Virus record (IMG/VR): IMGVR_UViG_3300014026_000115
Span: 1 to 8,785 of that record
Origin: a virus
DNA length: 8,785 nucleotides
Reading direction: 5' to 3' (one strand)
Made by a program: the position numbers and the translations under genes. Position 1 is the stretch's first letter; every line of letters starts with the position of its first letter. The notes beneath the pieces were generated by a model, which had not been told where the DNA came from, did not search any database, and was given only the letters and a program-made list of their open reading frames with translations. Shown here one piece after another: positions 1 through 8,785 of the stretch.

Positions 1-467
1 GCTTGCGTCAGGCCGGCAAGCTTGCATAGATCGACCGAGCCTTCGGTGTGCCCCGTGCGGCTTAGTACGCCGCCTTTTTTAGCGATGAGCGGGAAAATAT
101 GCCCAGGGCGCACGAAATCCTCCGGCTTTGACATCGGATCGGCTGCCAGGCGGATCGTGACGTCGCGTTCGTAGGCGCTCACGCCCGTGGTCGTGTTTTT
201 GGCGTCTATGGTGACGGTAAACGCCGTCTCGTGGCAGGACGTGTTTTTATCCACCATCAAATTTAACTCAAGCCTCTTTGCAATCTCCTCGTTTAGCGCG
301 AGGCACAGCACGCCTTTTGCGTGAGTTATGGCGAAATTTACCTTTTGGGTGTCGCTAAAGGTCGCCGCAAATACGAGATCGCCCTCGTTTTCGCGATCCT
401 CGTCGTCGACCATGACGACCATTTTGCCGTTTTTGATGTCGTTTATGGCCTGCTCTACTCTATCCAT
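1..467 (-). CDS. ribB: 3,4-dihydroxy-2-butanone 4-phosphate synthase domain (RibB, or N-terminal part of RibBA). 5' part only; the gene runs off the left edge.
   Basis: Absent from the ORF track because it is open at the window edge. The reverse complement from the ATG (complement of 465-467) reads without stops: [156 protein letters not shown]. It carries DHBP-synthase signature blocks ([49 protein letters not shown]). An AAGGA Shine-Dalgarno (complement of 474-478) sits 6 nt before the ATG. Confidence 0.9.
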
Positions 468-496
468 TGTTATTCCTTGTTTAAAAATTTAAGATA

Positions 497-504
497 ATTA
501 TACA
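497..504 (-). promoter_or_regulatory. Candidate extended -10 promoter element (TGTATAAT) for ribB
   Basis: The complement of 497-504 reads TGTATAAT (TGn plus TATAAT). It lies about 30 nt upstream of the ribB ATG in an AT-rich stretch, consistent with a short-leader sigma70-type promoter. No experimental support. Confidence 0.4.
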
Positions 505-1166
505 TTTTTAGCTTTAAATTTAGGCTTTTACGCGGGCTTGGATTGAGATTTTACGGACTTTTAGACACGGCCAGACGCAGCACGTACGGAGTTTGGTTAA
601 ATTTAAACGAAGCAACCAGGCTTGTAAGTTTTTGTTTAATTTTTACGGATTTATCAAATTCGACCGATTTTGGGCATAACCCGCACCTTGAAAATGTTAA
701 GGTCAAATTTAGCGATAATAATATGCGTGAGGTAAATTTTGCGCGTCTTTATTTTGGTTAAATTTGCCAAACCTTTAAAAATACGCACGATAGGATTTAG
801 GCCGTTTTATGGCGACGACCAAATTTGATCAAACTCGCCGCCAACCGCATGCCGTTTTGGAGCAAATTTGCCGACCCAAAAGTGCAGACACGCCTGCTTG
901 ACGTTACGCGAGCAGTAAATCATCTTAACGTCCTGCCTCGTGCCTTGCCCGCACGGTTTTATCACCTATACTCAGACCGGCAACTACGGTTGCGATACCG
1001 ATACTTAAATCTGTTTTTTCGAACAACCGCAAACACTTTTAAATAGTCGATTTTCTAATTTAATAAATTTTGTATCCATCGAATTTAACTGCCGTCTTCT
1101 TGCGTTTTGTATTCTATTTGCATACAAATTTGCGACAAGGACGGAAGCATTTAAATTTGATAAATT

Positions 1167-1610
1167 TTACTGTTTTGGCTTGATTTGATATTTTGCACCG
1201 AGCCTTGCAAATTCTTTTGTAAAAAATGCGTTTAAATCTCGCAGGCTGTCGTCGTTCATTTGGATAAGTTTTAGGCGATTTTTCTTGTAAATTTTAATTT
1301 TTTTGCTTTTTCTTTTTAGGTATTGCGGCGTCTCAAGTCCCCAAAATTCGATATAAATTTCGCTTTGCGTAAGGTAAAAATCGCTAACGACGCGCTCTTT
1401 GGTCGGCGCTTTTTTCTCGTAGATAAAATCTATGCCGCGGTAAAACAGCCAATTTGCCACGATGAGCTCGGCACGGCTTTTTACCGTATCGCCGCTATCG
1501 CTCTTGTATCTAGTTTGCTTGATTTTTTGCTTTTTAAATAGCTTTAAAGCCAGCAAAATAATTACGATCAGCAGCAAAACGATTAAAATTTTTGGTACGT
1601 CAAAGCTCAT
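1167..1610 (-). CDS. Membrane-anchored hypothetical protein with a PD-(D/E)XK-like nuclease-fold motif pattern
   Basis: 147-aa ORF with an ATG start (complement of 1608-1610). It has an N-terminal hydrophobic helix (KILIVLLLIVIILLALKLF). This is followed by SRAELIVANWLFYRGIDFIYEK ... VVSDFYL ... IYIEFWG ... YLKRKSKKIKIY ... LIQMNDD. This is the S-x-x-E / D-F / E-x-x-G pattern that I recognise from nuclease-like N-terminal domains of some UvrD/helicase IV-type proteins. The function is inferred from motifs only. GC is lower than in ribB (hand counts 23/60 for line 1201-1260 and 17/60 for line 1501-1560). Confidence 0.7.
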   Translation of the reverse strand: MSFDVPKILIVLLLIVIILLALKLFKKQKIKQTRYKSDSGDTVKSRAELIVANWLFYRGIDFIYEKKAPTKERVVSDFYLTQSEIYIEFWGLETPQYLKRKSKKIKIYKKNRLKLIQMNDDSLRDLNAFFTKEFARLGAKYQIKPKQ

Positions 1611-1670
1611 AAATAATTTTCTTTAGTGCGAAATTTGATTCTTCGGAGTAAATGAAGGAAAAACTAGATT

Positions 1671-1715
1671 TGGTTGCGGAGGACGGACTTGAACCGCCGA
1701 CCTTCGGGTTATGAG
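1671..1715 (-). tRNA. Truncated 3' fragment (anticodon loop to CCA) of an initiator-type tRNA-Met(CAU). Not a functional gene; a candidate att core.
   Basis: The complement reads CTCATAA-CCCGA-AGGTC-GGCGG-TTCAAGT-CCGTC-CTCCGCA-A-CCA. These segments are the anticodon loop with CAT, the 3' anticodon stem starting CCC, the variable loop, the T arm with TTCAAGT, the 3' acceptor strand, discriminator A, and CCA. The CCC at 39-41 and the GCAACCA end are initiator tRNA hallmarks. The 5 nt upstream in tRNA sense (TAATC) cannot pair with CCCGA. No D arm or 5' acceptor strand follows, so only the 3' 45 nt are present. Confidence 0.8.
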
Positions 1716-1740
1716 GATTATGCGCTGCAAAATCTTTTTT

Positions 1741-1768
1741 AAAACGTCCATTTTTTGGGCGTTTTTTT
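1741..1768. terminator. Candidate bidirectional rho-independent terminator at the att/prophage junction
   Basis: The stem ACGTCCA (1744-1750) pairs with TGGGCGT (1756-1762), 7 bp with one G-U on the plus strand, around a TTTTT loop. It is flanked by AAAA upstream (1741-1743 onward) and a T run (1762-1768). It lies 7 nt downstream of the stop of the minus-strand 98-aa ORF. On the minus strand the stem has one C-A mismatch and is followed by TTTTAAAAAA. Confidence 0.45.
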
Positions 1769-1774
1769 GTTATT

Positions 1775-2071
1775 TTAATCAAAAAAAGCTCTGTGTTTTA
1801 TTTTTTCTCCTGTTGTTTTTTCAATGTGTTCCTCTAGTTCATAAAATCTTAATTCTAAATTTTTTATTTTTCTTTCTGCTTCTTTTGCTAAGGTATAGCT
1901 TCTAAAAATATAATATATCATTGCGATCGTTATTATAATGCTTATTACTGCTTCTGCTGTTCCCATGTAATACATTTGTGTTGCTCCTTTTGCCATTGCT
2001 TGATTAAATTCCTGCATACCTTTTGCTGATTCTTCCATTATCTTGCCCATATTTTTAATATATTCGTCCAC
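1775..2071 (-). CDS. Hypothetical single-pass membrane protein (third gene of the AT-rich cassette)
   Basis: 98-codon ORF. The track start is GTG (complement of 2069-2071), 11 nt after the upstream stop and preceded by a purine-rich AAGAAG. Alternative in-frame ATGs are at 2050 and 2038. It has a central hydrophobic helix (AEAVISIIITIAMIYYIF) followed by a charged helix (KEAERKIKNLELRFYELEEHIEK). I recognise no family. Confidence 0.6.
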   Translation of the reverse strand: MDEYIKNMGKIMEESAKGMQEFNQAMAKGATQMYYMGTAEAVISIIITIAMIYYIFRSYTLAKEAERKIKNLELRFYELEEHIEKTTGEKIKHRAFFD

Positions 2072-2082
2072 GTTCTTCTTTT

Positions 2083-2565
2083 TTAGTTTATTTTAATCGC
2101 TTTTTTTGCTCTTTCTCTTTCTCTCCGTTGAATTTCTTTTTTGTCTAAAATTTCACACATATATACATCTCTTTCCCTGTTTATTACATTTACTAAATAG
2201 CAATTTCTATTTTCTTTTAAATTTATTTTTTCTTTTATTTTTATATAGTCGTTTACAAGGCTACCGAATACAAAATTTGATAATTCCTTGTTTTCTGTTT
2301 GAAATTCAAAGTTTATATGCACTATCCCTTCTTTATCGTATTTCCAGTTTAGTTGTTTTTTGGCCTCTTTTTCTTTGGAAATATCATATATTGATCCATC
2401 TTGTTTGAAGTTAAAAACCCATTTGTTACCTACTCCAGATGCAAAAGAAAAAACTAAATCATCTACGCTTCTTATATACCATTTTCCTACTATATCAACA
2501 TCTTTTCCAAAATCTAAAGCTATTAATTTTATTCCTATTGATATTACTGTTACTATTTTTTTCAT
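2083..2565 (-). CDS. Hypothetical protein with an N-terminal hydrophobic segment (second gene of the AT-rich cassette)
   Basis: 160-aa ORF. Its ATG (complement of 2563-2565) overlaps the stop of the upstream HTH gene as ATGA, which suggests translational coupling. The N-terminus MKKIVTVISIGIKLIAL looks like a signal sequence or anchor. It is followed by a beta-rich region (IVGKWYIRSV, KWVFNFKQDGSIYDI, LNWKYDKEGIVHINFEF) reminiscent of lipocalin-like small barrels. The C-terminal tail is basic (RRERERAKKAIKIN). Confidence 0.7.
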   Translation of the reverse strand: MKKIVTVISIGIKLIALDFGKDVDIVGKWYIRSVDDLVFSFASGVGNKWVFNFKQDGSIYDISKEKEAKKQLNWKYDKEGIVHINFEFQTENKELSNFVFGSLVNDYIKIKEKINLKENRNCYLVNVINRERDVYMCEILDKKEIQRRERERAKKAIKIN

Positions 2566-2798
2566 TGACCTAGCTCTTTTTTTAATACAGTTATTTTTAT
2601 ATTTGATAAGTAAAATTCTTGTTCTTTTTCTGTAAGCTTTTCAAAATATTCTTTTAATTCGTCAAATTTAGAATTTTTTTCAATAGATTTATTAATATTT
2701 TCAACTATAAATTTGTATAGTACTGGTCGATTTTTTTCCCAATTATAAAGCGTTCTTAGCTCTATTTCTAGCAAATTTGCTATTTCTTTTTTTTCCAT
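2562..2798 (-). CDS. Small helix-turn-helix DNA-binding protein; candidate prophage repressor, regulator or excisionase-like protein
   Basis: 78-aa ORF with an ATG start. The N-terminal KKEIANLLEIELRTLYNWEKNRP matches the pattern of short phage HTH proteins (excisionase/MerR-like HTH with R-T-L-Y-x-W). It is divergently oriented from the plus-strand phage operon, as rstR is in CTXphi and the repressor is in Pf phages. It is the first gene of a coupled three-gene minus-strand unit. Confidence 0.75.
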   Translation of the reverse strand: MEKKEIANLLEIELRTLYNWEKNRPVLYKFIVENINKSIEKNSKFDELKEYFEKLTEKEQEFYLSNIKITVLKKELGQ

Positions 2799-2844
2799 AT
2801 TTTTAGAAATTCTTTCATTTTTTTATTTTGTATTAAGCTTATAT

Positions 2845-2890
2845 ATGAAATAATTTCATTGTTGAAATCTAATTTGTTGAAAGTATTTCA
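2845..2890. promoter_or_regulatory. Operator-like dyad and direct-repeat cluster in the divergent control region
   Basis: ATGAAATAATTTCAT (2845-2859) is a perfect 15-bp palindrome with core TGAAA-N3-TTTCA. A second TGAAA-N3-TTTCA dyad, TGAAAGTATTTCA, lies at 2878-2890, with centres about 32 bp apart. A third TGAAA half-site lies at 2863-2867. The 9-bp direct repeat TTGTTGAAA occurs at 2859-2867 and 2874-2882. Confidence 0.5.
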
Positions 2891-2950
2891 TATTTTTGGA
2901 TTATATCAAAAATTATGGAATTCCGCCCTGAATATGGCGCTAAACTATTT

Positions 2951-2998
2951 CCGCCGTGTTTTGGCATAGAGCACCTCCACGGCGGCGTTTATGCTCTA
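2951..2998 (+). promoter_or_regulatory. Two overlapping, mutually exclusive stem-loops in the leader of the phage plus-strand operon
   Basis: Hairpin A pairs CCGCCGTG (2951-2958) with CACGGCGG (2978-2985). Hairpin B pairs TAGAGCA (2967-2973) with TGCTCTA (2992-2998) and is followed by AAATTTATTTTTA. Each hairpin loop contains one arm of the other. TTCCGCC is directly repeated at 2921-2927 and 2949-2955. The local GC is far above that of the surrounding AT-rich spacer. Confidence 0.4.
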
Positions 2999-3021
2999 AA
3001 TTTATTTTTAAGAGGTGCATT

Positions 3022-3402
3022 ATGGAATTAGTTGACAAAGGTTACGAAGTAACTTATACACTTGTTAAGGGACTTATTAGAAGTTCCGCTTCCGGTAAAT
3101 TTGAGGGTAATGACTATTCCTCATCTGTCCGAATATCTACTGTAAACGTTTATGATGTCGAGAATAAAAAGACCGGCATTATAGATAGCGTTCAGCAACC
3201 CGTAGTATTTAAAATCGTTTGCCCTGATGATACTACAGCCGGGCTCGTTGGGAATGCTGTTCGCGAAAAGCTTAAAAAAGGCCCTATTACCTTACATGGC
3301 GGTTTCCCTGCTGGTGAACAACGCATTATAGCCGTAGCCGAGCCTTACGAATACTTCTTATTTGATTCAAAGCCAACCGATAAAGCTTCTAAGGGGGCTT
3401 AA
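3022..3402 (+). CDS. Hypothetical phage protein, paralog 1 of a tandem pair (gV position; candidate ssDNA-binding or replication-accessory protein)
   Basis: The start was moved from the track GTG at 2956 to the ATG at 3022. This ATG has an AAGAGG Shine-Dalgarno (3010-3015) with a 6-nt spacer, and the GTG extension would run through the leader hairpins. 126 aa. It shares with the next ORF the blocks (V/I)TY.L, F(K/R)I.CPDD(T/P)TA, G.FP.G and PYE.FL. Confidence 0.75.
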   Translation: MELVDKGYEVTYTLVKGLIRSSASGKFEGNDYSSSVRISTVNVYDVENKKTGIIDSVQQPVVFKIVCPDDTTAGLVGNAVREKLKKGPITLHGGFPAGEQRIIAVAEPYEYFLFDSKPTDKASKGA

Positions 3403-3403
3403 A

Positions 3404-3736
3404 ATGAGCTTTTCTATCACTTATAGGCTTAAATGCGGGGAAGTAAGGGTTGTTCCTTTTGGTGCTGTTTTTTGTGAGGATAATGCCGCTCACGTTGTTA
3501 TCAGTTGCTCGAATACTTATAAAAACGTAAGTGAAGGAGTTTTTTTAAGTCAGCATGTTGATTTTAGAATTCCTTGTCCCGATGATCCGACTGCTGCTCG
3601 CATTGCGGATATTATTAAAAAGAAATTTGACCTTGGCGAAGAGGTCGTTTTTTTAGGCACTTTCCCTAATGGTAACGGTTCTTCTATAGTTATTACCCCT
3701 TACGAGCATTTTTTACCCAAGGCGGTGGAAAAATGA
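3404..3736 (+). CDS. Hypothetical phage protein, paralog 2 of the tandem pair
   Basis: The ATG at 3404 lies 1 nt after the upstream TAA and is preceded by AAGGGGG (3391-3397). 110 aa. It aligns by eye with paralog 1. Paralog 1 reads VVFKIVCPDDTTAGLVGNAVREKLKKGPITLHGGFPAGEQRIIAVAEPYEYFL. Paralog 2 reads VDFRIPCPDDPTAARIADIIKKKFDLGEEVVFLGTFPNGNGSSIVITPYEHFL. The upstream 14 codons in the track are unlikely because they overlap the end of paralog 1. Confidence 0.75.
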   Translation: MSFSITYRLKCGEVRVVPFGAVFCEDNAAHVVISCSNTYKNVSEGVFLSQHVDFRIPCPDDPTAARIADIIKKKFDLGEEVVFLGTFPNGNGSSIVITPYEHFLPKAVEK

Positions 3737-3960
3737 AAAATCCTTACAATACTGACGAAATGGTCGAGATTGTAGAAAAGTGCTATACCGACTTTAAGGA
3801 GTTTAAGGAGCGTTTTTATCTCTTTGATAATGGCACTGGCAATTATGACACTCATTACGATAACGTGTCTGACGTAGATTTATCTATAAGAGATGCTATC
3901 AAACTTTTAAAGGCTCGTGGCTATAAGCTTAATATTGAGCTTGAGCCTGGTTTGTTTTAA
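3733..3960 (+). CDS. Small acidic hypothetical phage protein
   Basis: 75-aa ORF. Its ATG overlaps the upstream stop as ATGA (3733-3736), placing it in the same operon. It is acidic and helical-looking (DEMVEIVEKCYTDFKEFKERFY ... IRDAIKLLKARGYKL). I recognise no family. Confidence 0.65.
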   Translation: MKNPYNTDEMVEIVEKCYTDFKEFKERFYLFDNGTGNYDTHYDNVSDVDLSIRDAIKLLKARGYKLNIELEPGLF

Positions 3961-3963
3961 ATT

Positions 3964-3984
3964 TAGCCGAATTTATTTCGGCTA
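3964..3984 (+). terminator. Hairpin after the 75-aa ORF; weak candidate terminator or attenuator
   Basis: TAGCCGAA (3964-3971) pairs with TTCGGCTA (3977-3984) around a TTTAT loop, followed by CTTATTT. It begins 4 nt after the stop at 3960. The T tract is short, so it is at best a partial terminator. Confidence 0.3.
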
Positions 3985-4023
3985 CTTATTTAAGCGTTAT
4001 TCTTTAGCTCTTAAATAAGTAGC
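3981..4023. repeat. Perfect 14-bp inverted repeat (15-nt loop) immediately upstream of the major coat gene
   Basis: GCTACTTATTTAAG (3981-3994) and CTTAAATAAGTAGC (4010-4023) are exact reverse complements. The left arm overlaps the preceding hairpin by 4 nt. The right arm overlaps a small TAGC-TTGC-GCTA palindrome (4020-4031). Confidence 0.8.
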
Positions 4024-4056
4024 TTGCGCTACTAAATTTTCTTGAAAGGATGGGAA

Positions 4057-4284
4057 ATGTTTAAAAAACTTTTCTCTGGGCTAAAATCTGCGTTTTTAGC
4101 TCTTGGTTTGGGGTTAGGTGCGGTTAATGCTACTGCCGCTGATTTAACTATGGGCACAGATGGAACCGTTACAGGTACTATTAACCTAGCCAACGTTTAC
4201 GTTGTTGGTGCTGCCGTATTCGGTGCGCTTGCTGCTATCGCTGTTGTTTCAATAGCGTTCAGAATGATTCGCAAAGTCGGTTAA
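4057..4284 (+). CDS. Major coat protein precursor (pVIII-like)
   Basis: The start is set at the ATG at 4057, with an AAGGA Shine-Dalgarno at 4047-4051, rather than the track TTG at 4042. 75 aa. The signal peptide is MFKKLFSGLKSAFLALGLGLGAVNATA with an A-x-A cleavage motif. The predicted 48-aa mature peptide has an acidic N-terminus (ADLTMGTDG), a hydrophobic core (VYVVGAAVFGALAAIAVVSIAF) and a basic C-terminus (RMIRKVG). This is the canonical inovirus coat architecture, in the correct position before the pIII-like gene. Confidence 0.85.
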   Translation: MFKKLFSGLKSAFLALGLGLGAVNATAADLTMGTDGTVTGTINLANVYVVGAAVFGALAAIAVVSIAFRMIRKVG

Positions 4285-4308
4285 TCTGAATATTTCAAAG
4301 GCTCTAGT

Positions 4309-4443
4309 ATGTTTGAATTTATAGAGTTGGCTAAATTTTACAAGTTTTTGTTTTCTCTATACGTTCCTATGTTCGGAGCCTTTGTCGCTTATTTCGTGGT
4401 ATCTCTTGCGATTGATTTTTTTAGGAGATCGGCTAATGATTGA
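4309..4443 (+). CDS. Small hydrophobic protein (44 aa); candidate minor virion or assembly protein (pVII/pIX-like class)
   Basis: Not in the supplied track because it is too short. The ATG at 4309 is preceded by AAAGG (4297-4301). Translation: MFEFIELAKFYKFLFSLYVPMFGAFVAYFVVSLAIDFFRRSAND. It has one TM-like helix with a charged C-terminus, and its stop TGA is at 4441-4443. Confidence 0.5.
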   Translation: MFEFIELAKFYKFLFSLYVPMFGAFVAYFVVSLAIDFFRRSAND

Positions 4444-4552
4444 TCTCGGTCTTTCTCAAGAGCAATATAACTTTATGATGGCTCTATCGGGCGTTTTATT
4501 TGGCTTCCTCGTGAATTTGCTGTTTATTTTGCTCGTTCATAAATTTAGCTAA
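4436..4552 (+). CDS. Small hydrophobic protein (38 aa); candidate minor virion or assembly protein
   Basis: Not in the track. The ATG at 4436 has an AGGAGA Shine-Dalgarno (4423-4428) with a 7-nt spacer, and it overlaps the previous ORF by 8 nt. Translation: MIDLGLSQEQYNFMMALSGVLFGFLVNLLFILLVHKFS. It has one TM-like helix. Confidence 0.55.
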   Translation: MIDLGLSQEQYNFMMALSGVLFGFLVNLLFILLVHKFS

Positions 4553-4562
4553 GGTGCTTAAA

Positions 4563-4685
4563 ATGTTTACTATTACTGGCGTTGCTTCATTTGATTATTT
4601 TGCTAGCATATTTATCTATTTCTTATTTATATCATTTCCATTTTCACTTTGTATAAGCATCTTAGCTAAGAAATTGATTAAGTAG
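4563..4685 (+). CDS. Small hydrophobic protein (40 aa); candidate minor virion or assembly protein
   Basis: Not in the track. The ATG at 4563 is preceded by AAGGTG (4551-4556). Translation: MFTITGVASFDYFASIFIYFLFISFPFSLCISILAKKLIK. It has a hydrophobic core and a basic C-terminus, and it ends 8 nt before the pIII-like start. Confidence 0.5.
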   Translation: MFTITGVASFDYFASIFIYFLFISFPFSLCISILAKKLIK

Positions 4686-4693
4686 GCCTTATC

Positions 4694-6025
4694 ATGCCTA
4701 TCCTAAAATCTTTAATCCTTTTACTTTTTCTTTCCGTTTTGGTCTTTGCTGAATCATATACTATTGTTTCTAATCCTTATCAACGTGAATTTGAAAAGAC
4801 AAATTTGGAGCCTGTAAGCTCTGATTTATTTAGGTTTTTAAAGGGCGATAGTTATGTATATTATAAAATTCGTGACGCTTTCCCCGATGTTTATTATTTT
4901 AATATTGATACTGGTATGACTGGCGGCGTTTATAAACATAGCAACGGTTACTTTTATCTTGAATCTAGCCCCTCTTTTAAATCTGTTTGCGGTAGGCCTC
5001 GAACTTATGATTCTTTTACTTTTCGTGATTGTGACTCTACAAATCCCCCTGACGGCAACTGGTGGTTTTCTATTTCTGCTCGTAAAGCTAATAAGTATAT
5101 TTTTAATGAAGTAGGCACTTGTAAAATCGATGAGGATTTTAACTCGGTTACTGGTCAGTGTCAAAAATGCCCTAGTGGTCAAACATGGAATCCAAAAACA
5201 AATAGTTGTTTTACTGATTGCACCGATAAAAACAAAAATAAATGGGGTTTTACAGATGGTTCTTGTGCTGATTGTAGCGGCGAAAATGATTCTAACGGCG
5301 TTAAGAAATGTTATTGTAATTTTATAGGCACAAGTCCTATGTTGCAAGAGGTTGAATTAATTAAAGGTAATTTTCGTCTTACTGGTTGCCAGAATGGCTC
5401 TCAGTTTTGGTATAAAGTACCTGGCACTCCAGATTCTGACGATAATAAAACTAAGCCTGATGATCCAAAGCCTGATGATCCTAATACTCCTAATCCTGGT
5501 GGTGGTAATTCTGGTGGTGGAAATTCTGGTGGTGGAAATTCTGGTGGTGGAAATTCGGGCGGAGGTAATTCTAACACTGATCCAAAACCTAACCCTAAGC
5601 CTGATGGTCCTAAACCTGATCCTAAGCCTGATAATGGAAATAATGACAATAAGGGTAAAGACCCTAAATTTAGTTCTGGTGATTTTAATTATGACAACCT
5701 TAAAAAAAATGAAGAAGGCTTGACAGGTAAATATATGGGGGCTATTGGTGATACTTTAAAGAATTTTGACGGCTTCAAAAATGGCGTCGATCAGTTTATT
5801 GATAACGTTAAAGGTAGAGGATTAAGCGATGTTTCTAAACAAAGCGTTCCTAAAACTTGTTCCCATAAAGAAACGATTGATTTTTTCGGACATACTATAA
5901 CTATGGATTTTGACTTTTGTAAGATTATTTCGCCTGCTTCTGGTGCTTTTTACTATCTTTTTTATGTGTTTTTCTTTGGCTGCTTTTTGTTTTTGATTAT
6001 TAAGCTTTTAATATTTACATTTTAG
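4694..6025 (+). CDS. Minor coat / adsorption protein (pIII-like)
   Basis: 443 aa. The signal peptide is MPILKSLILLLFLSVLVFA. The N-terminal region is Cys-rich (13 Cys, including CQKCPSGQTWNPKTNSC and CADCSGENDSNGVKKCYC). A Pro/Asp-rich plus (GGGNS)x5 plus PKPxP linker follows. The C-terminal domain ends in a hydrophobic anchor (GAFYYLFYVFFFGCFLFLIIKLLIFTF). Domain logic and position (after the coat gene, before the pVI-like and pI-like genes) match g3p of Ff phages. Confidence 0.8.
   Translation: MPILKSLILLLFLSVLVFAESYTIVSNPYQREFEKTNLEPVSSDLFRFLKGDSYVYYKIRDAFPDVYYFNIDTGMTGGVYKHSNGYFYLESSPSFKSVCGRPRTYDSFTFRDCDSTNPPDGNWWFSISARKANKYIFNEVGTCKIDEDFNSVTGQCQKCPSGQTWNPKTNSCFTDCTDKNKNKWGFTDGSCADCSGENDSNGVKKCYCNFIGTSPMLQEVELIKGNFRLTGCQNGSQFWYKVPGTPDSDDNKTKPDDPKPDDPNTPNPGGGNSGGGNSGGGNSGGGNSGGGNSNTDPKPNPKPDGPKPDPKPDNGNNDNKGKDPKFSSGDFNYDNLKKNEEGLTGKYMGAIGDTLKNFDGFKNGVDQFIDNVKGRGLSDVSKQSVPKTCSHKETIDFFGHTITMDFDFCKIISPASGAFYYLFYVFFFGCFLFLIIKLLIFTF
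5498..5572 (+). repeat. Five tandem 15-bp coding repeats (GGTGGTGGWAATTCN) encoding (GGGNS)x5
   Basis: The units are at 5498-5512, 5513-5527, 5528-5542, 5543-5557 and 5558-5572. Units 2 and 3 are identical, unit 4 differs from them at one position, and units 1 and 5 are more diverged. They are preceded by two tandem copies of AAGCCTGATGATCC (5453-5466 and 5468-5481) encoding KPDDP twice. Confidence 0.9.
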
Positions 6026-6034
6026 GGTTTATTA

Positions 6035-6454
6035 ATGCAAGCTATATTTAGTTTAATCGGTTTTATTTTTGGCTTCAATACCTGGAAAGAAGTTGTTGCA
6101 AGCGTTAGGCGTATTGTAACGTTTGGCGCTATGGTTGTTGTTAATACTGCTCTTGTGATTATGCTTTTTGCTTATGGTGCTGCCGTATTATCTCTTTTGC
6201 TTTTTGTTTATAACAAAACTAATCAATTTATATCATATTTGAGTAATTTAACCTCTGGCGGTAGTAATGAAATTTTAGCTTGGGCTATGGATATTTTTAG
6301 GGCTCTTGGCGTTTGGAATGCCTTTGTTGATGCCTATAACGTCTTTTCCGTTCCTATTGTTTCCATTATTACTATTTATGGCATGCGTTTAGGTCTTAAT
6401 GTTTTCCATTCTCTACAAAATACGCTTATGGCGTATTCTATCGCAAAGCTCTAA
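6035..6454 (+). CDS. Hydrophobic minor coat / assembly protein (pVI-like by position)
   Basis: 139 aa with multiple hydrophobic helices (IFSLIGFIFGF, FGAMVVVNTALVIMLFAYGAAVLSLLLFVY, VPIVSIITIYGM). It sits between the pIII-like and Zot/pI-like genes, as gVI does in Ff and ace does in CTXphi. The assignment is positional and compositional only. Confidence 0.65.
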   Translation: MQAIFSLIGFIFGFNTWKEVVASVRRIVTFGAMVVVNTALVIMLFAYGAAVLSLLLFVYNKTNQFISYLSNLTSGGSNEILAWAMDIFRALGVWNAFVDAYNVFSVPIVSIITIYGMRLGLNVFHSLQNTLMAYSIAKL

Positions 6455-6457
6455 CCC

Positions 6458-7606
6458 ATGATAACCTATATAGTCGGCAATCCAGGCTCCGGAAAATCCT
6501 ATTTTGCTGTATATAAGCTTTGGTATATGTTTATCTATAATCCAAAGCCCGCTAAAGGCATTTTAGGTAAAATTTTTAAGCCTAAACTTCCTGAAAACAA
6601 ATATCTCTACGCCTATACTAATATCAATGAATTTAAGTTCGAGCTTGATGAGCGACTGTTAAAATTTGACTATGATGAAATTTACGCCAACCTCGCAAAG
6701 CTCTATAACGCTTACAAGGTAGAAAAAAAGACCGATAAGGAGCTGATCGAGCTAGCTAAAGAAATGAGGCTTTATAAGGTTCTTTTTGTCGTTGATGAAA
6801 TTCACAACTATTTTAAGGCCAAAGAGGATCCGGTTCTCGTCTGGTGGGTTACTTATCACAGACACCTTTATCAAGACCTTTTATTTATTACCCAGGATTT
6901 AAGCCTCGTAAACAATGAATACAAGCGCGTAGCCGAGAAGTTTTACCGCGCGATAGATAGCTCTAAACGTCTATTCTCTAAGCGTTTTAAATACGCTTAT
7001 TTTACTTCTTATAAGATGTATCAATCTGACCGGGTCAATAATTTTAATATAAATTTGCCTTTTAATCAGGAAGTTTTTAATCTCTATCATTCCGGCCAGG
7101 ACAGCAAGAGTAAATCGGTAGTTAAATTTTTTATGGTCGCTGGCCTTATTATCTCTCTTTTAAGCGTGTTCGCGTTTATTTACGTATTTAATACCTTTTT
7201 CGCCGTTCCCGACGAATATGCGACTACTCCGTCTGAAAATTTAACCTCGCAAGTTTCAACGACTTCTGCTGCTTCGTCTAGGGCTTCTTTGCCGTCTAAT
7301 ACTTCCAAATCTGACGAGCCTATCGAGGCTGCTTATATTTACGAGATCGTTTGCGTTGCCGATAGCTGCCGTTTTAAAGGCGGTTCGGGTTCTTTCCCTT
7401 ATACCTATGTATCTTTTGTTATTTCAAGCCATAAGCCCGCCTATTTTTACTCTACTACGAAAAATAAGCATTATGTTGAATATTATCTTGTTTTTAAATC
7501 CCCGGTGCTTGATACTATCAAGCTTGCTTCATTTCAAAAATCTAATAAAGGTGCTCTTTATGAAAACTCTCAAGAAAATTCTAATTCTAATTCTTTGTTT
7601 AAGTAG
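6458..7606 (+). CDS. zot: Zot-like / pI-like filamentous-phage assembly ATPase
   Basis: 382 aa. An N-terminal P-loop, IVGNPGSGKSYFAV (Walker A), starts at residue 5. The Walker B-like motif is VLFVVDEIHNYF. A central TM helix (FFMVAGLIISLLSVFAFIYVF) starts around residue 224. A Ser/Thr-rich periplasmic C-terminal domain follows. This is the topology of Zot/gpI proteins, and the gene sits directly upstream of a secretin gene. Confidence 0.85.
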   Translation: MITYIVGNPGSGKSYFAVYKLWYMFIYNPKPAKGILGKIFKPKLPENKYLYAYTNINEFKFELDERLLKFDYDEIYANLAKLYNAYKVEKKTDKELIELAKEMRLYKVLFVVDEIHNYFKAKEDPVLVWWVTYHRHLYQDLLFITQDLSLVNNEYKRVAEKFYRAIDSSKRLFSKRFKYAYFTSYKMYQSDRVNNFNINLPFNQEVFNLYHSGQDSKSKSVVKFFMVAGLIISLLSVFAFIYVFNTFFAVPDEYATTPSENLTSQVSTTSAASSRASLPSNTSKSDEPIEAAYIYEIVCVADSCRFKGGSGSFPYTYVSFVISSHKPAYFYSTTKNKHYVEYYLVFKSPVLDTIKLASFQKSNKGALYENSQENSNSNSLFK

Positions 7607-8702
7607 CTTTGCCAAAGCTGAAACTATTTACACCGATTTACTAAATTTCGCCGAGCTTGCGAGTAAATTTAATAATATCGCTATCGTTACAGATGACAGT
7701 ATCGACGACAATTACTATTATTTCATTTACCAGCACGATACAAATTTAACCCTTGCTATGTTTAGAAAAATGCTTGAATCTAAGGGCTTATTTCTCTATA
7801 AAAAGGACAATTTTTACTATATTACGGATAAAAAGCTGCCCGATTACGATTTAAGGCGCATTGATCTTAGTAATTACATTGTTGAGGACGTTCGCCGAAT
7901 AATGGCAAATTTTGAGCTAAATGCGACTTATTCCACGACTTCAAATTCTGTATTCTTTCGCGCCGATGACGTAGCATACGAGCAAATAAAGCAAGCCGTG
8001 GCTTCTATTGATAAGCCTCTGGAGCAAGTAGAATTTAAGCTCACTATAACCGAGACAAATTTAAAAGACATCAAAGACCGCGGCGCAAAACTTCAAAGCC
8101 TGCTTAAGCCGCTAAATCACGGCGATTTAGCTTATTATATAAATCTTATTACTTCGCCTTACACTACTAATTCAAACGTTGTAAGAAACGATAGCGAGGG
8201 CTTTTTCGGCGTCTTAAATTTCCTCGATACAAACGGCTTAACGAAAATCATATCTAGCCCTTTTTTGACTGCTAAAAATCACACTGAAGTTAATTTCTCT
8301 GCCGTTCAAAACATTCCTTATTTAGTTCAAAATAGCCAAACCTCGGCTACCCAGACGACGACTCAAAATTCATACGAATACAAAGACGTTGGATTAAAAA
8401 TCACTCTTAAACCGGTTATTCTTAAAGATCACGTTGATTTTGACTTACATCTTATCCTCGAGGACTTACTTTCATCTAGCAATACATTAACGCCTATTAC
8501 AAGCAAAAAGGAGCTTAAAAGCTCTTATTCTCTCAAACGCGGCGATATTTTAGTTTTATCAGGCATTAACAAAACCACTACACAAAAACAGCGTAACGGC
8601 ATTCCCATTTTAAAAGACATTTTCATTCTTAAGTATCTCTTTTCCGTCGAACAAGACCAGGACATCAATTCCGTAGTTACTTTGACTATCCAAGTTATCT
8701 AA
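7560..8702 (+). CDS. Secretin (pIV-like, GspD/PulD superfamily)
   Basis: The start is set at the ATG at 7560, with an AAGGTG Shine-Dalgarno at 7548-7553. This gives the signal peptide MKTLKKILILILCLSSFAKA. The 68 extra codons in the track lie inside the zot reading region and look non-protein-like. The C-terminal secretin-domain pattern reads YEYKDVGLKITLKPVILKDHVDFDLHL ... LKRGDILVLSGIN ... NGIPILKDIFILKYLF ... LTIQVI. The gene overlaps the zot 3' end by 47 nt. Confidence 0.85.
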   Translation: MKTLKKILILILCLSSFAKAETIYTDLLNFAELASKFNNIAIVTDDSIDDNYYYFIYQHDTNLTLAMFRKMLESKGLFLYKKDNFYYITDKKLPDYDLRRIDLSNYIVEDVRRIMANFELNATYSTTSNSVFFRADDVAYEQIKQAVASIDKPLEQVEFKLTITETNLKDIKDRGAKLQSLLKPLNHGDLAYYINLITSPYTTNSNVVRNDSEGFFGVLNFLDTNGLTKIISSPFLTAKNHTEVNFSAVQNIPYLVQNSQTSATQTTTQNSYEYKDVGLKITLKPVILKDHVDFDLHLILEDLLSSSNTLTPITSKKELKSSYSLKRGDILVLSGINKTTTQKQRNGIPILKDIFILKYLFSVEQDQDINSVVTLTIQVI

Positions 8703-8717
8703 TCTAAATTTTGTGTC

Positions 8718-8761
8718 GTGCGGCGCGTAGCGTGGGAGCAAGGGTTCCCGCGCCGCCGCAC
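8718..8761. repeat. GC-rich imperfect hairpin just after the secretin stop (candidate ori, packaging-signal or att-type structure)
   Basis: GTGCGGCGCG (8718-8727) pairs with CGCGCCGCCGCAC (8749-8761), a 10-bp stem with a 3-nt GCC bulge. An inner GGGA/TCCC pairing is possible. GTGCGG recurs directly at 8771-8776. No T tract follows, so it is not a canonical terminator. Confidence 0.5.
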
Positions 8762-8785
8762 ATAACCAGGGTGCGGGGGAGCCGC

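Follow-up and report, generated by a model that had tools for sequence, protein, structure and literature searches.

A putative immunity operon with an exchangeable cargo slot behind the probable repressor gene of a Campylobacter filamentous prophage

Three coupled genes on the minus strand of IMG/VR virus record IMGVR_UViG_3300014026_000115, encoding a predicted 78-residue helix-turn-helix (HTH) protein, a 160-residue protein and a 98-residue protein, lie between the attachment (att) site and the phage operon of an integrated filamentous prophage (inovirus). The stretch analyzed, hereafter the window, comprises positions 1 to 8,785 of that record and holds the left end of a prophage of ~9 kb that sits in tRNA-Met of an oral, Campylobacter showae-like host. 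We read the three-gene cassette, with moderate confidence, as a lysogeny and immunity operon in which an autoregulated repressor is followed by swappable, envelope-acting cargo that most likely excludes superinfecting phage. The HTH repressor would be transcribed from a conserved extended -10 promoter and would bind three TGAAAnnnTTTCA palindromes, located in the leader of its own transcript and across the promoter region of the divergent phage operon; this would keep phage production switched off and let the repressor control its own expression. The genes behind it would be translationally coupled passengers of a transcript expressed in the lysogen. The 160-residue protein, a predicted Sec-exported and disulfide-stabilized barrel, should sit in the periplasm, and the 98-residue protein is predicted to be bitopic in the inner membrane; by analogy, and from the company that they keep, both would act at the lysogen envelope, most likely against a superinfecting phage, and would be dispensable for replication and assembly.

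The coupling of the three genes is tight, with the HTH stop codon overlapping the start codon of the 160-residue gene by 4 nt (ATGA, 2562-2565) and an 11-nt gap (2072-2082) between the stop codon of that gene and the start of the next (Table 1). An earlier reading made from the sequence alone (the original prediction) had placed three co-oriented, coupled minus-strand genes between an att site and the phage operon; its gene coordinates, overlap and gap are exact, and the att site is a real copy of the tRNA-Met 3' end. Between lineages, the ratio of nonsynonymous to synonymous substitution rates is 0.13-0.21 for the 160-residue gene, 0.06-0.11 for the 98-residue gene and 0.12-0.46 for the HTH gene, values similar to those of Zot and secretin, and by this comparison of sequences all three open reading frames are genuine genes under purifying selection.

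The cassette has a guanine-plus-cytosine (GC) content of 26.1%, compared with 36.6% for the phage operon, where no 1024-nt window falls below 33.1%, and 44.9% for the host flank. The earlier hand counts that had set its GC far below that of the rest (17/60 and 13/60 against 24/60 and 29/60) were likewise exact. In every lineage, no gene has a lower GC than the HTH and 160-residue genes (0.22-0.32 compared with 0.26-0.42 for structural genes), and because it is common to all lineages, the low GC characterizes this module and does not point to recent import. The proposal that the whole cassette was acquired separately as a moron therefore did not survive, as the HTH gene is fixed in the phage switch of every lineage examined and the low GC is clade-wide. 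A moron with its own promoter and terminator was considered and rejected, since the 4-nt overlap and the 11-nt gap leave no room for a promoter and the sense-strand hairpin is weak; downstream genes that have no promoter of their own fall outside the classical definition. Patchy presence in close relatives is seen for the 160- and 98-residue genes and not for the HTH gene, and the deviant base composition (26% versus 37%), though present, includes that core gene in all lineages.

The 78-residue protein is likely the phage repressor and, judging from its sequence and genomic setting, would be part of the phage switch, not cargo. Relatives of the window were first collected by homology to the 160-residue protein, which biased the sample, and were then resampled by Zot to give 80 IMG/VR loci. 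The HTH gene was present in 61 of these 80 relatives, many of them truncated contigs, and it points away from the phage operon at every locus examined; these loci come from C. showae, C. concisus, C. gracilis and metagenomic contigs. The putative HTH occupies residues 3-25, the C-terminal half is helical, and the motif A7..T16-L-Y-N-W-E-K..P25 is conserved in the alignment of these proteins. Its positional orthologue in locus L023 passes the Pfam HTH_3 cut-off (24.4 bits versus 23) and that in L036 matches HTH_17 (E 6.7e-5), while a PDB profile search with the family returned nothing meaningful.

Three candidate operators, 13-bp palindromes of the form TGAAAnnnTTTCA spaced 32 and 41 bp apart, lie in the divergent intergenic region. 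Three of the four matches to this pattern in the window fall within 86 bp there, compared with ~1.07 expected in the whole window. In nine lineages, palindrome triplets recur at approximately -92 to -76, -60 to -55 and -19 to -13 from the HTH start codon, with a different arrangement in the divergent L023. The sequence of the palindrome covaries with the recognition-helix allele: EIELRT is paired with TGAAAnnnTTTCA in the window, in L008 and in the distant L026, KKDITT with TTGAATnATTC, and KKDIKT or GKDLKT with GGAAnTATTkC. No correlation was seen between HTH alleles and the phage backbone (Spearman -0.04 versus Zot), as expected for exchangeable immunity determinants. The extended -10 of the HTH operon is conserved in 9/9 aligned lineages, reading TGATATAAT in six including the window, TAGATATAAT in L017 and TGCTATAAT in L020 and L026. 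Candidate operator O1 lies just downstream of this -10, at the predicted transcription start, and overlaps a plus-strand -35-like hexamer (TTGAAA), so that one HTH protein could shut both promoters.

In order to describe what follows the repressor gene, the slot was scored at the 55 Zot-selected loci where an HTH gene is followed by 300 nt or more of sequence. The 160-residue family occupies the slot at 36 of them, and an unrelated secreted helical protein of 106-142 residues at nine. A transmembrane-anchored Mrr_cat nuclease (Pfam E 1e-13) is present at three loci, one of which also has the 160-residue gene and is counted among the 36, a PDC-S69-like PD-(D/E)xK protein at two, and a small transmembrane protein followed by the contig end at three, with other genes in the remainder. 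The slot nucleases match the PADLOC candidate defence models PDC-S69 and PDC-S02/ZorD. In addition, convergent pairs resembling HigB and HigA (HigBA-type toxin-antitoxin) lie between the operon and att at ~20 loci. In every lineage selected by the 160-residue protein, with homologues down to 23-28% identity, the order is phage operon, divergent HTH gene, 160-residue gene, further cargo where present, and att. The idea that this made the 160-residue gene a core phage gene was rejected once Zot-based sampling had removed the selection bias and showed the other occupants.

The closest relative of the window phage is L040. Its Zot is 96% identical and its DNA is 90-92% identical over window positions 2732-8785, and its slot contains a PDC-S69-like gene (PADLOC E 3e-76) with a convergent secreted-protein gene and neither the 160- nor the 98-residue gene. 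At the distal end, a 349-nt segment that carries the 98-residue gene and a hairpin is cleanly missing from the C. showae prophages L001-L006, where window position 2076 joins position 1726, and in L045 a convergent gene for a 155-residue secreted protein takes the place of the 98-residue gene. On these sequence comparisons the slot is a hotspot of recombination and cargo exchange, where phages that are nearly identical elsewhere carry different genes. The idea of such a hotspot in related Zot prophages of Campylobacter had been raised for the whole cassette; the 55 loci and L040 bear this out for the 160- and 98-residue genes and not for the HTH gene.

Several further slot genes were observed. 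The Mrr_cat protein of L036 (5260-5880; also L110, L118 and L119) has 206 residues, with an N-terminal transmembrane segment ahead of the Mrr_cat domain (Pfam E 1e-13; PADLOC PDC-S02 and ZorD ~1e-7), and its gene either sits between the repressor and the lipocalin-like gene or stands in for the latter. The C. concisus-type phages L080, L091 and L100 encode a 142-residue secreted helical slot protein that has a signal peptide (MKKLLILIIAIINLNA) and its last nine residues (KKKLKIIMK) in common with the lipocalin-like protein P0040 but an unrelated centre, which looks like a central domain swapped within a conserved export frame. Outside the att repeat of the window, a 147-residue gene encodes a transmembrane segment and a PD-(D/E)xK-like domain (PADLOC PDC-S69 E 1e-28); longer homologues of 204-261 residues (PDC-S69 E 3e-76) occupy the repressor-side slot of L040 and L072, and the gene also adjoins att at loci with other host flanks (L014). 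The gene could be left over from a previous phage. The att core is unique in the window, which holds no second copy that would place this gene in an older element.

The 160-residue family has so far been found only in Campylobacter (C. showae, C. concisus, C. gracilis and uncultured-Campylobacter assemblies) and always in this phage context. A Sec-type signal peptide is predicted at residues ~1-16; across the family its sequence varies while its character is kept, with an N-terminal hydrophobic stretch in 55/59 members and a lysine or arginine near the start in 58/59. There is no lipobox cysteine. The glycine of a GxW motif, G27, is nearly invariant, and its tryptophan, W29, is invariant in alignments A1 and A2 and conserved at 90% or more in the 59-sequence alignment A4. 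W74 is invariant, and Cys122 and Cys137, which lie on neighbouring strands, are invariant or nearly so. The signal-peptide character and the conserved cysteine pair together predict Sec export and a periplasmic disulfide.

An AlphaFold2 model built from the 59-sequence alignment (predicted local distance difference test score, pLDDT, 83; predicted template modelling score, pTM, 0.74) shows eight main strands, an internal helix at 93-104 and a charged C-terminal helix; it replaced a model from a shallow 19-sequence alignment, which was dropped at pLDDT 57. Nearly all of the top 50 Foldseek matches in the PDB are lipocalins, among them Bla g 4, NGAL and its anticalins, beta-lactoglobulin and Can f 1, with probabilities up to 0.99. 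Pfam Lipocalin_4 (PF13648) is matched by 4/23 family members, all of them distant (best E 1.4e-5). The predicted structure resembles the Lipocalin_4/calycin fold in its GxW at the first strand, its approximately eight antiparallel strands and its C-terminal helix; the internal helix, the Cys122-Cys137 pair and the length and charge of the C-terminal helix set the protein apart. The modelled fold suggests that the protein is lipocalin-like, without assignment to the Lipocalin_4 family. The hydrophobic N-terminus and beta-rich, lipocalin-like body that had been noted from the sequence are supported.

Alleles of the 160-residue protein move between phages: the window protein is 94% identical to that of L003, where Zot is 51% identical, and 71% identical to that of L008, where Zot is 93% identical. 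The window phage is a distinct mosaic, with an L008-like HTH gene (94%) and an L003-like 160-residue gene (94%). A cytoplasmic role, in which the barrel would be a partner of the HTH protein, either an anti- or co-repressor in the manner of GrlR-GrlA or one half of a type II toxin-antitoxin pair, would account for the translational coupling through the ATGA overlap and for the presence of GrlR from the GrlR-GrlA complex (4kt5, E 1.3e-2) among the Foldseek matches. We judge such a partnership very unlikely, because of the signal-peptide character in 55/59 members and because HTH and 160-residue alleles assort independently (rho 0.03). The conserved cysteine pair, the occurrence of the same HTH types ahead of unrelated genes in other phages and the lack of any match to a toxin family in Pfam or PADLOC point the same way.

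A service to the phage itself was also weighed, with the 160-residue protein, perhaps together with the 98-residue protein, acting as a periplasmic chaperone, a secretin pilotin or a damper of envelope stress. Its gene is the commonest in the slot, holds a fixed position and is retained down to 23% identity; its identity moderately tracks the backbone (rho 0.51 versus Zot), and its predicted location is the periplasm, as is that of the assembly machinery. On the other hand, near-identical phages do without the gene, as in L040 with its 96% identical Zot, which makes a role in morphogenesis unlikely, and unrelated genes take its place elsewhere. The gene also belongs with the repressor, divergent from the morphogenesis operon, and pilotins are lipoproteins, which the missing lipobox cysteine does not fit. 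We regard this life-cycle role as improbable.

The 98-residue protein is predicted from its sequence to be a bitopic inner-membrane protein and to be accessory cargo. It comprises a 36-residue N-terminal segment, a transmembrane helix at ~38-56, where hydropathy peaks at 2.6 (residues 41-53), and a charged helical C-terminal tail, with a net charge of +3 just past the membrane segment; the description of a single-pass protein with a charged tail was therefore apt. Homologues form seven clusters, all of 98 residues and 84-93% identity, one of which is labelled Inoviridae sp. ctTUL13, and two further IMG/VR variants are ~65% identical. The gene is always directly downstream of the 160-residue gene, even where the latter is only 34% identical to that of the window, and this constant adjacency hints at a functional link. 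The protein matches PHROG 3999, a family of unknown function (E 3.4e-05); weak, sub-threshold matches to DUF7365, LlsX, and the holin and spanin families of PHROGs (E at least 0.2) were not trusted, and no homology to the 91-residue transmembrane protein of L023 was detected. A tblastn search of 50,697 phage records with the 160- and 98-residue proteins gave no match. Searches of Pfam, PHROGs, PADLOC and NCBIfam linked neither of the two to any known core function of inoviruses, as the original prediction had supposed.

An exclusion or defence role for the two cargo proteins is plausible by analogy. It is favoured because the slot is shared with candidate defence nucleases and accompanied by toxin-antitoxin pairs, and because there are precedents in lambda cI-rexAB, in PfsE of Pf4 (PMC8764522) and in inovirus exclusion genes (PMC6813254). 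A more specific version, which we put forward only tentatively and think rather unlikely, is that the exported 160-residue protein, alone or with the 98-residue protein, is a new envelope superinfection-exclusion or anti-phage factor that blocks a periplasmic entry step, and that the slot is an inovirus defence hotspot in which such factors are traded against nucleases and toxin-antitoxin pairs. No relevant paper came up in a literature search for prophage exclusion factors that resemble lipocalins.

The same genes might instead be lysogenic-conversion or fitness cargo with no anti-phage role, their exported products altering the bacterial envelope or the way in which the bacterium interacts with humans or with other bacteria, for example through ligand scavenging, protection from host factors or adhesion. 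Lipocalin folds typically bind small hydrophobic ligands, which would suit such a function. Most slot occupants are secreted (the 160-residue family at 36/55 loci, the helical protein at nine, the convergent 155-residue protein at several), the 160-residue family is restricted to Campylobacter, PADLOC finds no homology to a defence family, and secreted proteins in these prophages were flagged by Liu et al. (PMC5025632). Nevertheless, the PDC-S69-like and Mrr-like nucleases of the same slot are of a kind usually carried for phage defence or competition, the operon is followed by toxin-antitoxin pairs, and no ligand pocket or host target was identified. Conversion is in our view a serious alternative, though the less likely one.

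Several results weigh against an immunity operon with exclusion cargo. The association of the slot with defence is circumstantial, as its commonest occupants are exported proteins that fit lysogenic conversion equally well. The HTH protein of the window itself is sub-threshold, at 17.3 bits versus a cut-off of 27.9 for HTH_Tnp_1_2 and E 2.7e-3 for a PHROG DNA-binding protein. For the 160-residue protein, the best Foldseek E value is 2e-3 (none below 1e-3) and the TM-scores of 0.25-0.37 are low; the window protein has no Pfam match to Lipocalin_4 even at E <= 1, matches nothing in Pfam, PHROGs, PADLOC or NCBIfam, and a PDB profile search with its family returned nothing meaningful. The 98-residue protein is without a match in PADLOC, the annotated PHROGs, NCBIfam and PDB families. 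A decoy directed specifically at pIII was tried as an explanation and rejected, since the 160-residue protein shows no covariation with the pIII N-terminal domain (rho 0.50) beyond that with the backbone (rho 0.51, Zot).

The weak sense-strand terminator adds to these points. The original prediction had closed the unit with a terminator-like hairpin at 1741-1768; a hairpin of 10 bp is indeed present, though at 1741-1765, but it makes a good terminator only on the plus strand, where it reaches -12.8 kcal/mol (z -3.2) and a T-run comes next. Read in the direction of the cassette, the hairpin contains a C.A mismatch, and only four U precede an A-run (-7.8 kcal/mol, z -1.6); as a terminator of the cassette it is weak or bidirectional at best. 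The hairpin would halt host-side transcription into the prophage better than it would close the cassette.

The proposed immunity operon can be compared with several known systems. In lambda cI-rexA-rexB, an autoregulated repressor gene is followed by non-essential genes that protect the lysogen, one of which encodes a membrane protein, and three operators lie between divergent promoters. The window would resemble this plan in its repressor, its passengers on the same transcript, one of them a membrane protein, and its three candidate operators between divergent promoters, all of them here read from sequence. There is no sequence or fold kinship with lambda, and the Campylobacter passengers are a predicted exported barrel and a single-pass protein in a non-lytic, single-stranded DNA inovirus. 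In CTXphi (RstR/ig-2) and Pf4 (Pf4r), a small repressor divergent from the replication and assembly operon sets the immunity type, and the position of the HTH gene is alike. PfsE, a small inner-membrane protein of Pf4, blocks superinfection by binding PilC (PMC8764522); no homology to the 98- or 160-residue proteins was found. Roux et al. (2019, PMC6813254) report that inoviruses commonly carry toxin-antitoxin pairs as well as genes for superinfection exclusion, a repertoire into which the HigBA-like pairs and nucleases of the Campylobacter slot fit.

The window belongs to the same element type as the Campylobacter zot prophages CON_phi2, CON_phi3, CON_phi4, URE_phiZA, COR_phiZA and others (Liu et al. 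2016, PMC5025632), with which it shares the integrase, Zot, secretin, insertion at the tRNA-Met 3' end and an essentially identical att (CTCATAACCCGAAGGTCGGCGGTTCAA.TCCGTCCTCCGCAACCA), matched by that of CON_phi4. All proteins besides Int and Zot were left hypothetical in that study, and the repressor, operators and cargo slot are not described there; the repressor-linked cargo position was worked out in the present analysis. What is gained is a testable switch consisting of one small repressor, three candidate operators and one promoter region, a defined site where these phages would exchange lysogen-expressed genes, and two uncharacterized families, one exported and lipocalin-like and one bitopic, beside candidate defence nucleases and toxin-antitoxin pairs. 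To our knowledge, earlier work on the Zot filamentous prophages of oral Campylobacter has dealt solely with Zot, a possible toxin with a link to inflammatory bowel disease, and has left their regulation and other genes unannotated. If the exported protein does block entry, it would represent a periplasmic inovirus exclusion mechanism unlike that of PfsE of Pf4; if it is a conversion factor instead, it would be a prophage-borne secreted protein in human-associated Campylobacter, with a bearing on the Zot-centred view.

Table 1. Features of the window, in order of position.
Feature	Positions	Strand	Remarks
ribBA (host gene)	starts at 465, continues off the window	minus	
147-residue gene	1167-1610	minus	outside the att repeat
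att repeat, 49 nt	1667-1715	minus	marks the prophage end; copies the 3' end of tRNA-Met
presence/absence segment, 349 nt	1727-2075		carries the 98-residue gene and the hairpin
hairpin, 10 bp	1741-1765		between the 98-residue stop codon and att
98-residue gene	2071-1775	minus	from open reading frame list; GTG start
160-residue gene	2565-2083	minus	from open reading frame list
78-residue HTH gene	2798-2562	minus	from open reading frame list
candidate operator O3	2805-2817		AGAAATTCTTTCA; 7 nt upstream of the HTH start codon
candidate operator O2	2846-2858		TGAAATAATTTCA; perfect 5-3-5 palindrome
candidate operator O1	2878-2890		TGAAAGTATTTCA; perfect palindrome
extended -10 of the HTH operon	2900-2908	minus	TGATATAAT; ~100 nt upstream of the HTH start codon
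GC-rich structured segment	2912-3021	plus	between the switch and the first phage gene, outside the cassette
phage operon	downstream of the switch	plus	two paralogous small proteins, coat-like, pIII-like, pVI-like, Zot, secretin

The prophage end is defined by the att repeat, which is 94-100% identical (blastn) to the 3' part of the intact tRNA-Met found by the integrase gene in L001, L008, L012 and L014; neither ARAGORN nor Rfam found a complete tRNA, or anything else, in the window. Beyond the end of the window, Rep (Phage_GPA) and then a tyrosine integrase come after the secretin in related loci. Searches of annotated phages and plasmids by megablast gave no match to the whole window. One 8893-nt contig, L007, looks like a complete phage genome in circularly permuted form, with the order HTH, 167-residue lipocalin-like gene, hairpin, phage attachment site (attP), Int, Rep, secretin and Zot, which shows that the cassette adjoins attP directly in the free phage; its attP matches a tRNA-Ser-type 3' end (TTCAAATCCCTCTCTGTCCACCACCA). 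On the host side, no flavin mononucleotide riboswitch or other Rfam family was found upstream of ribBA at the gathering threshold, and the ~700 nt between ribBA and the 147-residue gene (466-1166) contain short open reading frames only, none with evident support.

On the other side of the switch, the GC-rich segment has 12 predicted pairs, eight of them with compensatory changes across seven lineages (RNAalifold), between the conserved flanks AAACTA and GGAATTCC, and it could act as operon leader, as replication origin or in packaging. The phage operon opens with two paralogous genes (3022-3402 and 3404-3736, plus strand), with 34% identity over 107 residues (E 1e-15) and a common CPDD.TA motif. 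No family match was found for either product, and by position they may be single-stranded DNA-binding or replication-accessory proteins. Finally, the 443-residue pIII-like protein (4694-6025, plus strand) contains 5.4 copies of a GGGNS-type 15-nt repeat (5453-5632) and PKPD-rich repeats. The DNA of its N-terminal two-thirds is unrelated between phages that are otherwise 87-92% identical (the window versus L008, L041 and L042), which suggests rapid turnover of the receptor-binding domain.

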